Of a stretch of DNA of 64,000 nucleotides, positions 55,406 through 61,500 are shown piece after piece. Source of the stretch: Ostreococcus lucimarinus. Taxonomy: Eukaryota. Position 1 is the stretch's first letter, and every line of letters begins with the position of its first letter. The translations under genes were made by a program, and so were the position numbers. Location of the stretch: the NCBI GenBank assembly GCA_000092065.1, contig CP000592.1; one strand, written 5' to 3'. The notes below the pieces were generated by a model. That model saw nothing but the letters and a program-made list of their open reading frames with translations, ran no database searches and was not told where the DNA came from.

Positions 55406-55508
55406 CGTCGTCGTCGTCGTCGTCGCGGGTGTGACGTCGAAGTTCGTAAACCCCCGTCCGGGCGCCCCGAATCGAACGTCCCGGCGCGATTGCCGAAATC
55501 GGGAAAAA

Positions 55509-55650
55509 TCGAACAATCGAACAGTCGAAAAGTCGAACAATCGAACAGTCGAAACATCGAAAAGTCGAACAATCGAAAAGTCGAAACATCGAACAGTCGA
55601 AAAGTCGAACAATCGAAAAGTCGAAACATCGAACAGTCGAAAAGTCGAAC
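55509..55650. repeat. Tandem 8-nt repeat (TCGAANNN) of about 18 units with a 24/48-nt higher-order period. It lies 100-245 nt upstream of the BolA ATG and about 107 nt upstream of the hydrolase ATG.
   Basis: Sequence tcgaacaatcgaacagtcgaaaagtcgaacaatcgaacagtcgaaacatcgaaaag... All six frames stay open across it, so the long ORFs in the track through this region are artefacts. Confidence 0.9.
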
Positions 55651-56903: not shown

Positions 56904-57323
56904 TCAGGTCGCGCCCGCGCTCTCGACGACGACGACGTCGACGTCGTCGTGCGCCCCCTGCAACAACAGCTCCCCCGCGAACGTCAACTTTCCTCGCTTC
57001 TTCGCCGCTCGCAGCGTCCCGTTCAGCGCCTCGAACGTGTTCGCCACCTCATCGTCGCGCACGAGCGCGCCGAACTTCACCTGCGTCGCGCGATCGCGCG
57101 ACATCGCGCCGTCAGTCGCGCGCGACGCAAAGAGTCGTTTCGCGCGCGCGCGTCGCGCCGTTCGTCGTCGCGCGCGCCTTGCACGTCCCGCCCGCGTCGA
57201 CGTCGCCGAGTCGTCGCACGGCGTCGACGAGGGCGTCGACTTCACCGTCCACGTCCATGACGGCCGCACCGCGCGCGACGCCGTGCCGACGCGACGGCCG
57301 CGCGCGCGTCGCGCGCGTCGCAT
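56904..57323 (-). CDS. Small hypothetical protein, 139 aa, with an R-rich presequence and a compact C-terminal domain.
   Basis: C-terminal 65 aa is non-degenerate (MSRDRATQVKFGALVRDDEVANTFEALNGTLRAAKKRGKLTFAGELLLQGAHDDVDVVVVES). No family recognised. Confidence 0.3.
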   Translation of the reverse strand: MRRARRARGRRVGTASRAVRPSWTWTVKSTPSSTPCDDSATSTRAGRARRARRRTARRARAKRLFASRATDGAMSRDRATQVKFGALVRDDEVANTFEALNGTLRAAKKRGKLTFAGELLLQGAHDDVDVVVVESAGAT

Positions 57324-57473: not shown

Positions 57474-59729
57474 ATGAAACGCGTGGGTCCGATGATGACG
57501 CGCGCCCGACCGACAGTCCGAGGCGCGCGCGCGGCGACGGTGCGTCGTGGGAGCGACATGACGGCGCGCGACGCCGCGCGCGACGCGGAGGCGGCGGAAT
57601 CGCGCGAAAGCGACGCGCGGGGGGGGGATTCCGAACGCCCGGGGACGCCCGGACGGGACGACGACGACGACGCGCGCGATGGGATTTGGAACACGGCTGA
57701 GTTGCATCAGAGACTGATGCACTTGAACGTACACTCGAGCACGTCGAGCACGAGCTCGAGAAAGTCGGGCGATCCGAGCGCGAGCGGAGACGGGCTGCAG
57801 ACGACGACGAGCGGGTCCGCGAGCGGCGCGGGGGCGTCGAGCGGGACGCCGACGGGGGTGCTGCCGACGAAGTTGACGTCGAAAATGACGACAAAGGAGG
57901 TGAAATTCGGTGCTCAGAGTTTTGATTCGCTGAATCAGTACATATTGATCAAGGATCTCGGACGAGGATCGCATTCAAAGGTGAAGTTGGCGATGAATCA
58001 ACAGGATAATCAGCTCTACGCGGTGAAGTGGACGGACTCTCGAGTGAACTCCTGGAAAGCCGTTCGCAAGGAGATTGCCGTGCTGAAGAAGTTGCATCAT
58101 CCAAACATTCGTACTTTACACGAGGTCATCGATGACGAGTTCAAAAAGGAACTCATCTTAGTCTTGGAGTATTGCCAAACGGGACCCATTTTCACGCGTT
58201 TCAGCACGGTGGCGGTGGACGAAAAGGTTTTACTAGGATACGCTCGCGACATCGTGCTCGGATTGGATTACTTGCATTCGCTGCACATCGCGCACATGGA
58301 TCTTAAACCAGAAAATATGCTTCTGTGCACCGATGGCGAAGTCAAGCTCGCAGACTTTGGCGTGAGTTTCATACACGACTTGGTTTCGTCCGACGGCGTT
58401 GAGAAACGACTTGTGGGTACGCCGGCGTTTTTAGCGCCCGAAGTTCTTTCGGAAGACGGTTACGACCCATTCAAGGCAGATATATGGTCCCTGGGGGTGT
58501 GTTTCTACAATATGGCTATGGGCAAACTGCCGTTCCCAGGCAAGACGGTGTACCAAATCGTCGCAAAAGCGCGCGCAAACGAATTAGTATTCGACGAAGA
58601 CGCGCCGCTCTCAGAAAATTTCAAGGATCTTTTGCGCAACATGATGTGCGTTGACCCCGCGAAACGGCTGGATATTGCTGGCGTGATGCAGCATCTTTGG
58701 ATCACGCGCGATGGGGAAGAGCCTCTCGCGCGACCTCTCACCGAGCTGCCGCACGCCATCGTGGAGCTCACCGAGGAAGAAATCGCGAGCGCCATCAGAA
58801 CCGATCCGCTTGCCGCTTTATTGCAGCCTTCCTTCAACTTGGTGGAGTTCAACGATGGCGATATTCTTATGCACAAAGGTGCTATCGGTGAAGTGATGTA
58901 TTTCATCAACAAAGGTCACTGTGAGGTGTTGATGGACGCGATCGGAGTTGATTTAGACACCATCGATCGAGAACGCGAGACGGACGTTTTGGTCGTGCGA
59001 GAGGCTGGAGAGATTGTGGGGGAAATTGCGTTCCTTAAAGCGATGCAAGGGATCCGAGAGAAGTCGCACGTGCACGGCTATCGCACAGCGACAGTCAGGG
59101 CGAAGGGGCCGGTTGAGTGCCTCGCTGTAACCGTCCAAGACATGTTGACGGCGCTCGGTAAGGACGAACTTTCTCGAGTACGCCTCGTGCGCAGTGCGAG
59201 TTTCAAACTCGACCAAAACGAGGAGGTTCGCCTGCAGCTCAACATGAGAACCTCTAGAACGAGCAATGACTCGGACAGGAGCGAAGAAGCGCATCCTTTT
59301 AATCCGACTCGGAGGATCAGTGTGCTGTACGCCGAGGATAGCATGCCGACGCAGATGATTGTCAAAGCCTTTTTGAGGAAACTTGGCGACGTCGACGTAA
59401 CGATCGCCGCCGACGGGAAAAAGGCATTGGATGCGCATAAATCTATGAACTCTAACTTTGACTTGATTCTCATGGATTGTCAAATGCCTGTGATGGATGG
59501 TTTGGAAGCGACGACGCGCATTCGCGAACTCGACTCCGCCAAATCTGTGGTACCCATCGTGGGCGTGTCTTCTGGTGTTGAAGGAATGAGTGAAAAAGAG
59601 TGCCGCGACGTCGGGATGAATGACTTCGTCCTCAAACCACTGAACGTGCGGAAGTTGACAGATGTCATTCGCAAGACGCTACCTGAGCTCTTCGTCGAAG
59701 ATCCAGTTTCAAAAGACGAGAGAATCTGA
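57474..59729 (+). CDS. Multidomain signalling protein: a non-RD Ser/Thr kinase (CaMKK/AMPK-like) fused to a cyclic-nucleotide-binding domain and a two-component receiver (REC) domain.
   Basis: Kinase: LGRGSHSKVKLA, YAVKW, HMDLKPENML (Met replaces the HRD Arg), KLADFG, GTPAFLAPE. CNB: FNDGDILMHKGAIGEVMYFINKGHCEV...GEIAFL...RTATVRA. REC: VLYAEDSMP...DLILMDCQMPVMDGLEAT...VGVSSG...VLKPL. Confidence 0.8.
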   Translation: MKRVGPMMTRARPTVRGARAATVRRGSDMTARDAARDAEAAESRESDARGGDSERPGTPGRDDDDDARDGIWNTAELHQRLMHLNVHSSTSSTSSRKSGDPSASGDGLQTTTSGSASGAGASSGTPTGVLPTKLTSKMTTKEVKFGAQSFDSLNQYILIKDLGRGSHSKVKLAMNQQDNQLYAVKWTDSRVNSWKAVRKEIAVLKKLHHPNIRTLHEVIDDEFKKELILVLEYCQTGPIFTRFSTVAVDEKVLLGYARDIVLGLDYLHSLHIAHMDLKPENMLLCTDGEVKLADFGVSFIHDLVSSDGVEKRLVGTPAFLAPEVLSEDGYDPFKADIWSLGVCFYNMAMGKLPFPGKTVYQIVAKARANELVFDEDAPLSENFKDLLRNMMCVDPAKRLDIAGVMQHLWITRDGEEPLARPLTELPHAIVELTEEEIASAIRTDPLAALLQPSFNLVEFNDGDILMHKGAIGEVMYFINKGHCEVLMDAIGVDLDTIDRERETDVLVVREAGEIVGEIAFLKAMQGIREKSHVHGYRTATVRAKGPVECLAVTVQDMLTALGKDELSRVRLVRSASFKLDQNEEVRLQLNMRTSRTSNDSDRSEEAHPFNPTRRISVLYAEDSMPTQMIVKAFLRKLGDVDVTIAADGKKALDAHKSMNSNFDLILMDCQMPVMDGLEATTRIRELDSAKSVVPIVGVSSGVEGMSEKECRDVGMNDFVLKPLNVRKLTDVIRKTLPELFVEDPVSKDERI

Positions 59730-59768: not shown

Positions 59769-60461
59769 TTATTGTTTCGTTTTCGCCATCTTCTTCGGCA
59801 TCGTCAGCGCCGCGGCACTCCACAGTGCGCTCTCGAGCTTGGCTGGTGTGAGGTCATCTGCGCCGAGATCGTCGCATTTACGGTGCAGAGCTTTCATAAA
59901 CTCGTGATACCGCGCTGCGGAGTATCTATCATTTCCCCCGTTTCCGACGACGACGGCAAGCGCCTCGTCGCTAAAGAATGGAAACCGCTCGTCGCCGACC
60001 GCCATGAGAATCGACGCCGTGGCTGGTCCGCATCCTTTCAGCGCGATGAATGGTGCCATAGCATCGACGATTTTACCCTTACTATTTCTTTTGCCCCCTT
60101 CGCTCGCGTGTGCGAGTCGATACGCCTCTCGACTCGCGCTCTCCACGTCGCGTTCCGACAACGCTTGCGCGTACTTCATCAACCCAGGTCTCGTTTTCCC
60201 TCGCGCCAGCTTCCACTCCACCACGCGCACGTACTCATCCTTTTTTATGTATCCCCAATCATCGCTCGTCGCGCTCGTCGCGCGTCTTTGCGCGATGGTT
60301 TTCGGAAGTTCTTTGCGCACGAACGCATCCAACTTGGATAACCGCTCGCCTAGATTCAACGCTCGCAAGCGCTCGTCGTACGCCGCCGCGTGCGCTCGCC
60401 ACTGTTCTCGATCCCCGCCGTTCCAAAGCTTTATCGCGCCCTCGTGCGCGATCGGTGGCAT
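59769..60461 (-). CDS. Hypothetical conserved-looking protein of about 230 aa with an HhH-like GxGPATA motif.
   Basis: …AIKLWNGGDREQWRAHAAAYDERLRAL…FIALKGCGPATASILMAVGDERFPFFSDEA…. Start set at MPPIAHEG to avoid overlapping the carrier gene ATG. Confidence 0.4.
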   Translation of the reverse strand: MPPIAHEGAIKLWNGGDREQWRAHAAAYDERLRALNLGERLSKLDAFVRKELPKTIAQRRATSATSDDWGYIKKDEYVRVVEWKLARGKTRPGLMKYAQALSERDVESASREAYRLAHASEGGKRNSKGKIVDAMAPFIALKGCGPATASILMAVGDERFPFFSDEALAVVVGNGGNDRYSAARYHEFMKALHRKCDDLGADDLTPAKLESALWSAAALTMPKKMAKTKQ

Positions 60462-60525
60462 CGTCGCGCGATCGGGACGACGACGCGGCGCCACACTCTG
60501 ACGCGTCGTCGTCCCGTCTCGTCCC

Positions 60526-61500
60526 ATGGGGCGCGACGCCCGAGGTCAAGCCGCGAAGACGGCGCCCGGGGAGCCGCGATCGGCGCGCGCGAGCGCGGAG
60601 AAGAAGAAGAACCCCGCGGCGAGCTTCATCGGCGGCGCGAGCGCTGGTTTAGTGTCCAGCGCGCTGTTGCAGCCGTTCGAGGTGGTGAAGACGAAGATGC
60701 AAGCCGAAAAGCTGCGAGGCGCGCGCGGGATGGTGAACGTCGCCGCGGACGTGGTCAAAACGAACGGGATGAAAGGGCTCTGGAGCGGCGTCAGCGCGTC
60801 GTGCGTGCGAACCACCGCGGGGGCTGGGTTGTACTTCTTCTTGCTCGAGCGCGTGACGAGGGAGCTCGCGGCGAGTTTTAACAAGGAGAAAGCGACGCCG
60901 TTCGAACGCTCTGCGATGACGTTCGGCGCTGGGTGCTCGGCGAGAATGGTCGCGGCGGTGCTGCTGAACCCTATAACCGTGGTGAAGACGCGGATGGAAT
61001 ACGCAGGGGCGAACGCGGGGGTGCGGCAAGGCATGGTGGCTACGTTTGCGAGCGTGGCGCGGAAAGAGGGCGCCGGGGGGTTGTTTTCGGGGCTCGGAAG
61101 CACGGTCGCTCGAGATGCGCCTTTCTCAGGGCTCAATTTGTTGCTCTTCACCCAGACTCGGCATTTGATGCACGAAGTCGCGCGCATGCAGAACCGCGAA
61201 GCCGGAGCGGCGGACACGTTCATCGCCGGCGCGCTCGCGGGGGCGGGGGCTACGTTTCTCACGCACCCTCCCGATGTCATTCGTACCCGAGTTCAGCTCG
61301 GGCGAATAATGACGCAACAAAGCGGTAGCAAAATGCCAGCCGTATCACTGGCGAAAATTCTCAGGGAAGAGGGTGTTCGCGCGCTGTGGGTCGGTTCGCT
61401 CCCTCGCGTAACGCGCAGAACGTTTCAGCAAGCCATCACGTGGAGCATGTTTGATTTCGTCTCTCGCGCTTTGGGGGGGACGGACATCTTTCAGCGTTAA
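60526..61500 (+). CDS. Mitochondrial carrier protein (SLC25 family) most similar to SLC25A38/Hem25 glycine carriers.
   Basis: Three Mitochondrial-carrier repeats with PFEVVKTKMQ, PITVVKTRME and PPDVIRTRVQ signatures, plus GLFSGLGSTVARDAPFSG. Confidence 0.8.
   Translation: MGRDARGQAAKTAPGEPRSARASAEKKKNPAASFIGGASAGLVSSALLQPFEVVKTKMQAEKLRGARGMVNVAADVVKTNGMKGLWSGVSASCVRTTAGAGLYFFLLERVTRELAASFNKEKATPFERSAMTFGAGCSARMVAAVLLNPITVVKTRMEYAGANAGVRQGMVATFASVARKEGAGGLFSGLGSTVARDAPFSGLNLLLFTQTRHLMHEVARMQNREAGAADTFIAGALAGAGATFLTHPPDVIRTRVQLGRIMTQQSGSKMPAVSLAKILREEGVRALWVGSLPRVTRRTFQQAITWSMFDFVSRALGGTDIFQR

Follow-up and report, generated by a model that had tools for sequence, protein, structure and literature searches.

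The REC-CAMK gene Ol12g01600 of Ostreococcus lucimarinus: a CaMKK-like kinase joined to cyclic-nucleotide-binding and receiver domains, and a putative output of a minimal His-Asp phosphorelay

Ostreococcus and its relatives have among the smallest signalling repertoires of free-living eukaryotes, with two histidine kinases (HKs), both of them photoreceptors, one histidine-containing phosphotransfer (HPt) protein and a handful of receiver proteins. Which role might be played in such a setting by a single protein that combines a Ser/Thr kinase, a cyclic-nucleotide-binding (CNB) domain and a two-component receiver (REC) domain? The question is raised by a gene within 64,000 nucleotides (nt) of contig CP000592.1 of Ostreococcus lucimarinus (assembly GCA_000092065.1), the stretch that was analysed here and is referred to as the window. 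According to the list of open reading frames (ORFs), a single unbroken reading frame, beginning with ATG and encoding 751 amino acids (aa) plus a stop codon, occupies positions 57474..59729 of its plus strand. There is no stop within 2,253 nt, and all three Pfam domains are read in the same frame, namely Pkinase (aa 157-410, E-value 6e-61, 206.6 bits), cNMP_binding (aa 457-561, E-value 4.9e-9, 36.5 bits against a gathering cut-off of 27.5) and Response_reg (aa 617-732, E-value 5.6e-20, 72 bits against a cut-off of 30.2). With such E-values, the three-domain observation is far beyond chance. The initial annotation, made from the letters alone, had claimed one intronless ORF of 751 aa with kinase, CNB and REC domains, and both the ORF list and the Pfam search agree with it.

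The first 130 nt of the published Ol12g01600 coding sequence (CDS) are identical to window positions 57717-57846, with 0 mismatches, and the window gene is therefore Ol12g01600 on chromosome 12 of O. lucimarinus. A supplementary table of PMC12704426 (ISME J 2025) lists this locus as the O. lucimarinus REC-CAMK, with the CDS at chr 12 249,717→251,729; by arithmetic from this position, window base 1 corresponds to approximately chr12:192,001. The same paper describes REC-CAMK as one of three putative response regulators shared by all the Mamiellales genomes that it covers, namely those of Bathycoccus, four Ostreococcus and two Micromonas, with the members Ol12g01600, ostta12g01580, Od12g02250, Ostme07g01530, Bathy07g03200, Mipuc09g01490 and Mipur06g01570 and a phylogeny that agrees with the species tree. 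Ol12g01600 is thus the REC-CAMK gene, of which each Mamiellales genome examined to date has one copy. The authors of PMC12704426 state that calmodulin-kinase effector domains were, to their knowledge, unreported in plant response regulators. The legend of their Supplementary Fig. 3 names protein kinase (PT_KIN), cNMP and REC among the drawn domains, and the terms 'cyclic' and 'cNMP' are absent from the main text.

The architecture had initially been presented as new, but the gene and its kinase-cNMP-REC layout were already published in 2025 under the name REC-CAMK, with the same gene according to the exact DNA match and the same set of domains. Finding the gene by scanning the window therefore adds little in itself. 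The additions made here are modest and comprise a catalytic-loop change that is invariant in the clade, an insertion in the CNB domain, the HPt-type character of the receiver, a wider kinase-CNB family, the restriction of the three-domain layout to Mamiellophyceae and a probably truncated start of the published model. Our literature search found no functional experiment on REC-CAMK, and PMC12704426 gives no functional data. The details added here point to specific mutations and constructs with which a biochemical study could begin.

The kinase domain (aa 157-410, window 57942..58703, plus strand; PF00069) had been called CaMKK/AMPK-like, and only the first half of this label stood up. The best sequence match in the PDB is human CaMKK2 (6cmj, E-value 7.7e-51 with phmmer), and the kinase scores 176.5 bits with CaMKK2 and 158 bits with CaMKK1, whereas BRSK, CIPK, LKB1 and MARK reach 139 bits or less. 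With the predicted fold as Foldseek query, CaMKK2 and CaMKK1 occupy the top 19 ranks with TM(target) values of 0.72-0.78. Since these two are best by sequence and by predicted fold, we classify the kinase on both comparisons as CaMKK-like rather than AMPK-like. The JGI functional annotation of family members, '[calcium/calmodulin-dependent protein kinase] kinase', reads the same way. The identity to CaMKK1 and CaMKK2 is 34-37%, the motifs DFGVS and GTPAF(L/M)APE are common to all of them, and REC-CAMK is without about 12 residues of the Arg/Pro-rich insert that CaMKKs carry between β3 and αC, where the alignment has gaps. The best named single-kinase match from a land plant is a Physcomitrium protein labelled GRIK1.

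The most conspicuous feature of the kinase is its catalytic loop, in which HRD is replaced by H274-M275-D276 (window 58293..58301, plus strand). M275 sits opposite the HRD Arg of human CaMKK2 in the phmmer alignment with 6cmj, and the DFG and APE motifs are intact, exactly as initially noted. CaMKK and the moss proteins labelled GRIK1 are RD kinases with HRD, whereas HMD is found in REC-CAMK, where it is invariant in 81 of the 81 clade members retrieved (P0001-P0081), so that the family consists of non-RD kinases. The remaining motifs are GRGSHSKV (163-170), K185 (in AVK), E200, HMD-LKPEN with N281, D294-FG and A321-PE, and the Gly loop, K185, E200, D276, N281, DFG and APE show little or no variation in the family alignment. 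Judged by these residues, the kinase is predicted to be catalytically competent. With M275 in place of the HRD Arg, the usual Arg clamp on the activation-loop phosphate cannot form. The lost clamp is no proof of independence from activation-loop phosphorylation, and calling the kinase activation-loop-independent, as had been done, reads too much into the non-RD loop: the titles of two reports, on the receptor kinase EFR (PMC8463890) and on PKD (bioRxiv 10.1101/2022.05.05.490744), concern precisely the activation-loop phosphorylation of non-RD kinases.

The CNB domain (aa 457-561, window 58842..59156, plus strand; PF00027) carries the motifs G516-E517-IAFL and R537-TATVRA, which frame the phosphate-binding cassette (PBC; window 59019..59102, plus strand). 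The PBC Glu contacts the ribose of the nucleotide and the PBC Arg its phosphate, and every retrieved member has both residues (E517 and R537 in this protein). The motif had been quoted as GEIAFL...RTATVRA, and it is indeed present; however, the ellipsis hides an 11-residue insertion (KAMQGIREKSHVHGY), since 15 residues separate the two halves here and about 4 in canonical CNB domains. Expressed as Glu-to-Arg distance, the spacing is 20 in O. lucimarinus, 14-20 across the clade and 9 in a relative from Nephroselmis (GEMAIFGDGMRTASL), the canonical value being about 9. The AlphaFold2 model, which was built for a construct of aa 138-751, places the extra residues in an extended helix at 517-528. 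A second insertion, which is acidic and also variable, is found in the β4-β5 loop. A profile of the family CNB domain matches the ligand-binding CNB domains of Plasmodium PKG (E-value 2.4e-19, three stretches summed), PKA RIIα (2.6e-14), CNGA3 (1.7e-13) and HCN2 (about 4e-12), and the profile alignment sets the family motifs G-E-x-A and R-T-A-[ST] onto the PBC of PKG. R-T-A is reminiscent of cassettes of the PKG/HCN type, and cGMP and cAMP sites alike can have Thr or Ser behind the PBC Arg. Binding of a cyclic nucleotide monophosphate (cNMP), be it cAMP or cGMP, by this domain is plausible on the strength of these residues but not assured.

The receiver (aa 617-732, window 59322..59669, plus strand; PF00072) possesses E621-D622, the stretch LILMD668CQMP, S699, the aromatic switch residue F718 and K721-PL. 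D668 (codon at 59475..59477, plus strand) is the predicted phospho-acceptor, as MD668CQMP aligns with the phospho-acceptor motif FMDVQMP of SLN1. The phosphoacceptor-site residues are kept in all three-domain homologues, and MDCQMP in every receiver-bearing homologue. The initial annotation would have been undermined by a loss of key residues on alignment, but both those of the CNB domain (Glu and Arg) and those of the receiver (DD, D, S/T and K) survive alignment with 20-80 homologues. Receivers of hybrid HKs are the best PDB matches (SLN1 with an E-value of 4.1e-19, followed by fungal HKs, AHK5 and CKI1), and the NCBIfam matches are the receiver regions of TorS, ArcB, BarA and LuxQ. By these comparisons, the domain most resembles the HPt-interacting receivers of hybrid HKs. 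Such receivers exchange phosphate with HPt proteins. Upstream partners that could feed the receiver, for which a search of the genome had been suggested, are already listed for O. lucimarinus in the literature: the LOV-HK Ol09g02040, the Rhod-HK1 Ol16g01360 and the HPT Ol08g04140. In O. tauri, LOV-HK and Rhod-HK are the only HKs according to the literature.

The architecture had been described as uncommon outside algae and protists. The rarity is real, but the wording is too broad. We used aa 138-751 as phmmer query against 1.84 billion representative proteins, inspected the best 150 matches and scanned the listed matches again with the kinase, CNB and REC domains separately. One full-length three-domain representative scored 624 bits, followed by three fragments (P0076, P0079 and P0209) and by scores of 334 bits and below. 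No kinase-CNB-REC protein from outside the Mamiellophyceae is among these best 150 of 1.84 billion representatives, a search that very divergent cases could escape. Within the class, about 78 homologues from Ostreococcus, Bathycoccus, Micromonas and Mantoniella have the same continuous layout, and MMETSP transcripts of Mantoniella and other Mamiellophyceae that are flagged as complete encode it as well. A kinase followed by a C-terminal CNB domain, without receiver, is widespread in green plants and algae, being present in Mesostigma, Chlorokybus, a Tetraselmis cluster, Nephroselmis, Botryococcus and Riccia. These two-domain proteins are the nearest relatives outside the Mamiellophyceae (39-47% kinase identity to REC-CAMK in the three that were aligned). 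They differ from REC-CAMK in the missing receiver, in the PBC spacing, which is canonical in Nephroselmis and varied elsewhere, and in the middle residue of the HxD motif, which is R, G, H or M. As far as the sequences tell, an old green-lineage kinase-CNB protein likely gained a receiver in the ancestor of the Mamiellophyceae, the receiver being the addition of this class.

The distribution of the catalytic-loop residue is more intricate. Among the receiver-less relatives, HRD is found in Nephroselmis, Riccia, Mesostigma, Chlorokybus and the Physcomitrium proteins labelled GRIK1, HGD in Botryococcus and three others, HHD in one protein and HMD in the Tetraselmis cluster. The change from Arg to Met is fixed in the Mamiellophyceae sequences, and the comparison indicates that loss of the HRD Arg recurs in the chlorophyte branch, without a strict connection to the gain of the receiver. 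A strict link, in which HMD arose together with the receiver, was considered and is ruled out by the receiver-less relative of the Tetraselmis cluster, which has HMD, and by the other chlorophytes with HGD or HHD.

Two connecting segments deserve attention. The acidic linker between kinase and CNB domain, together with the N-terminal CNB helices (aa 411-456, window 58704..58841, plus strand; helices predicted with low model confidence), shows 47-89% identity across the Mamiellophyceae, on par with the domains. It runs into the CNB domain, and no basic amphipathic calmodulin-binding segment is apparent in it by inspection alone. CaMKKs possess a C-terminal autoinhibitory and calmodulin-binding helix, whereas REC-CAMK has CNB and REC domains in its place, and we infer that aa 411-456 occupies the position of that segment. 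PMC12704426 names the effector a 'calmodulin kinase', for which the acidic linker offers no apparent calmodulin-binding segment on this inspection. The second segment (window 59157..59321, plus strand) consists of a long helix predicted by AlphaFold2 (about aa 565-593; residues 428-456 in the numbering of the construct) and a variable linker leading to the receiver, and is 27-74% identical among the three-domain orthologues. In the same proteins, identities are 54-83% for the kinase, 47-89% for the acidic linker, 47-88% for the CNB domain and 53-81% for the receiver, and this similar conservation suggests that all these parts are under selection.

The explanation that in our opinion best accounts for these observations, and that we regard as rather probable, is a CaMKK/GRIK-like kinase that is gated by its CNB-REC tail and serves the minimal His-Asp phosphorelay of the alga as an output response regulator. 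The phosphorelay from LOV-HK or Rhod-HK to HPT would phosphorylate D668, and the binding of cAMP or cGMP to the CNB domain would serve as a second input that co-gates the kinase. The tail, standing in place of the CaMKK autoinhibitory segment, would gate kinase activity, and phosphorylation of the Asp and cNMP binding would jointly set the output of Ser/Thr phosphorylation. The signal would likely be transmitted by two conserved elements, the long helix that leads from CNB to REC and the linker that joins kinase and CNB, and the loss of the Arg clamp would fit a kinase that is controlled by its tail rather than by an activation-loop phosphate. Ligand binding, phosphotransfer, direction of regulation and substrates are inferred throughout. 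Cyclic nucleotides are likely to be used as messengers in this lineage, because class III adenylyl cyclase (AC)-like genes occur in O. tauri and Micromonas pusilla (PMC5159850) and five AGC kinases with cNMP domains in O. tauri (PMC4143559); our search for literature on guanylyl cyclase or cGMP in Ostreococcus returned only indirect statements of this kind.

Several observations weigh against this explanation. The AlphaFold2 model contains no confident inter-domain packing (predicted TM score 0.44, mean pLDDT 67, linkers below 50) and thus lends no structural support to an autoinhibitory contact. The non-RD status is uncoupled from the receiver, as described above for the receiver-less HMD, HGD and HHD relatives. 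Five other receiver proteins of O. lucimarinus (TOC1a, TOC1b, REC-DOF, REC-WD40 and REC-GARP) are rivals for the same HPT, and an input from the photoreceptor HKs to REC-CAMK is only one possibility. The literature is silent as well: a search of main texts for ostta12g01580, the gene ID of the O. tauri orthologue, had 0 hits, and the O. tauri kinome paper (PMC4143559) does not discuss REC-CAMK in its main text. The remaining points concern the CNB domain. Its PBC insertion varies between 5 and 11 residues and in sequence across the clade, Bathycoccus has R-N-A in place of R-T-A, and the matches of the single sequence to PDB entries are weak (best E-value 3.5e-4). Given the insertion and the Bathycoccus residue, cNMP binding could be altered or lost.

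These last points lead to the rival explanation that survives best. It is possible that only the receiver is a true input and that the CNB domain resembles the 'CNB-homology' module of KCNH channels, free of ligand and kept as spacer or autoinhibitory plug after its PBC was remodelled by the insertion. The variable insertion that the Nephroselmis relative lacks, the variable acidic loop between β4 and β5, the Asn that follows the Arg in Bathycoccus in place of Thr, the modest Pfam score of 36.5 bits and the weak single-sequence matches speak for such a module. However, no retrieved member deviates in the PBC Glu or Arg, whereas KCNH-type domains lack the PBC Arg, and the family profile aligns through the PBC with the domains of PKG, PKA and CNG channels. 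Moreover, CNG channels tolerate a longer PBC and bind cGMP nevertheless, the Glu-to-Arg spacing of CNGA1 being 15, and cyclase-like genes and other kinases with cNMP domains are present in the lineage. In view of this conservation, we consider a ligand-free CNB domain unlikely, albeit the most serious of the competing explanations.

A bolder version of the proposed tail-gated kinase goes further downstream. REC-CAMK might be a 'kinase kinase' of the CaMKK/GRIK type that places SnRK1/AMPK-type energy signalling or clock proteins under the control of both photoreceptor HKs (via HPT and D668) and of a cyclic nucleotide, and the clade-invariant change from Arg to Met would then mark the passage of control from the activation loop to the CNB-REC tail. 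According to the kinome paper (PMC4143559), O. tauri has a single SnRK1 gene. SnRK1 and clock proteins as substrates of REC-CAMK are speculative, and in this extended form the scheme appears doubtful to us.

Somewhat less probable still is a receiver that does not switch its kinase allosterically but serves as docking or dimerisation module, bringing a constitutively active non-RD kinase to the HK/HPT machinery, or as a sink that drains phosphate from this machinery; the kinase would phosphorylate components of the phosphorelay or of the clock as a feedback. Constitutive activity would agree with a non-RD loop, the receiver belongs to the hybrid-HK type, several response regulators share one HPT, a setting for which sink receivers are known in bacteria, and no confident intramolecular packing is predicted. 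In contrast, F718 and S699, which are needed for a phosphorylation-driven conformational change, are conserved, and the conservation of the CNB-REC helix and the kinase-CNB linker suggests that signalling takes place within the molecule.

The two weakest rivals can be dealt with briefly. That the kinase domain is a pseudokinase or scaffold, as M275 in place of the HRD Arg and the Ser at the third Gly of the Gly-rich loop (GRGSHSKV) might indicate, is very improbable and was rejected, since the catalytic residues K185, E200, D276, N281 and D294 and the APE motif are present and invariant across the family and loss of the HRD Arg alone leaves catalysis in place, PKD and EFR being, by the titles of the reports mentioned above, active non-RD kinases. 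Hardly conceivable, and rejected likewise, is a gene-model artefact in which the three domains belong to separate genes or are split by a hidden intron or stop, which would have overturned the initial annotation: the published models disagree at the 5' end and a deposited Bathycoccus model is without two kinase segments, but 2,253 nt without stop hold the three domains in one frame, about 78 homologues and transcripts marked complete from Mantoniella and other Mamiellophyceae share the continuous layout, and the disagreements are confined to the non-conserved N-terminus.

That N-terminus is nonetheless the part of the gene for which the published model can probably be improved. The region of aa 1-156 (window 57474..57941, plus strand) is rich in Ser, Arg and Asp and poorly conserved, and its first 145 residues are only 12-46% identical to those of the orthologues. 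Candidate start codons are M1, M7, M8, M29, M82 (57717) and M138 (57885). The published model of Ol12g01600 begins at M82 and comprises 670 aa, that of the O. tauri orthologue begins at the equivalent of M138, with a CDS of about 1,815 nt, and a form of 751 aa that differs in 3 residues is found in a public protein collection that draws on NCBI among other sources; these models differ only in the non-conserved N-terminus. The motif W73-N-T-x-E-L-H-x-R-L lies upstream of M82 and is kept in 7 Ostreococcus lineages, and in codons 51-100 the GC content at the third codon position (GC3) is above that at the first and second positions (GC1 and GC2). From this conservation and codon usage, translation probably begins upstream of 57717, with M1, M7, M8 and M29 as candidate starts, the published O. 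lucimarinus CDS would be truncated at its N-terminus, and a longer protein is suggested. The base composition also splits inside the ORF, with a GC content of 0.63-0.76 in the first 150 codons and of 0.45-0.61 in the domain-encoding codons, which is under the window average of roughly 0.6.

Several known systems resemble REC-CAMK in part. PKG and PKA are likewise Ser/Thr kinases joined to CNB domains with PBC Glu and Arg. They are AGC kinases, however, and their CNB domains precede the kinase or belong to another subunit, whereas REC-CAMK has a CaMKK-like kinase, a single C-terminal CNB domain and a PBC insertion of 5-11 residues. It falls outside the PKG/PKA family. Fungal Rim15 shares with REC-CAMK a Ser/Thr kinase with a C-terminal receiver and is counted among the fungal response regulators (PMC8510515). 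Its receiver retains the phospho-acceptor Asp in Basidiomycota and Mucoromycota, whereas in Ascomycota this site is taken by Glu, Ala or Gly (PMC8510515). Unlike REC-CAMK, Rim15 possesses a Greatwall-family kinase (PMC8510515) and no CNB domain, and the two kinase-receiver fusions are independent of each other. In Euglena gracilis, Rhabdomonas costata and Cyanophora paradoxa, a eukaryotic Ser/Thr kinase is followed by one or more receivers, but no CNB domain was detected in these proteins, HRD is kept and the layouts are others, such as KIN-REC-KIN-REC in Euglena. These fusions share a combination of domains with REC-CAMK and not its ancestry.

REC-CAMK is the only listed receiver protein with a protein kinase as output domain. 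If its receiver and its CNB domain gate the kinase as proposed, it would be a simple and genetically tractable link between a light-driven His-Asp phosphorelay, cyclic-nucleotide signalling and Ser/Thr phosphorylation, and if so, this link could extend to energy sensing or to the circadian clock. Should the kinase be a kinase kinase, a single polypeptide would bridge the His-Asp phosphorelay and a Ser/Thr kinase cascade. This makes REC-CAMK an attractive putative signalling node.

Some homologues show peculiarities of their own. One of these concerns the N-termini (P0056, P0061, P0063, P0066, P0067, P0081, P0086 and P0107). Several three-domain homologues outside Ostreococcus and Bathycoccus, likely from Micromonas or relatives, start with MGPCLS, the Nephroselmis and Botryococcus relatives begin with MGC, Mantoniella with MWCCI and Bathycoccus with MSFFSSCFYCF. 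MGPCLS and MGC resemble myristoylation/palmitoylation motifs, which suggests a possible membrane anchoring of these proteins; the Ostreococcus models are without such a motif. The deposited model from Bathycoccus prasinos (P0075, NCBI) lacks one kinase segment around β3 and one before αD. Both are present in near-identical metagenomic ORFs (compared with P0023), and the gaps are likely due to falsely predicted introns. Two Physcomitrium proteins labelled GRIK1 (P0098 and P0101) align with the CNB region of the family, yet have no detectable cNMP_binding domain. Their alignment hints that some land-plant GRIK-like kinases might have descended from a kinase-CNB ancestor, with a CNB domain that has degenerated.

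The neighbours of REC-CAMK in the window encode an α/β-hydrolase, a Costars-domain protein, a 252-aa ORF, a mitochondrial carrier and a BolA-like protein, and no functional link between REC-CAMK and these neighbouring genes was seen. The 252-aa ORF (59769-60527, minus strand) is convergent with the kinase gene, lies directly downstream of it and has no Pfam match at E ≤ 0.01. The Costars-domain gene (56904-57323, minus strand) is arranged head-to-head with the kinase gene, with about 150-370 bp between the possible start codons, and the two genes probably share a bidirectional promoter. Further upstream, between the BolA-like gene (minus strand) and the α/β-hydrolase gene (plus strand), positions 55503-55650 hold a tandem array of about 18 copies of the 8-nt unit TCGAA[A/C]AG (periods of 16, 24 and 40 in TRF). 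This array could be a promoter-region minisatellite, and it yields spurious ORFs for repeat peptides on both strands.

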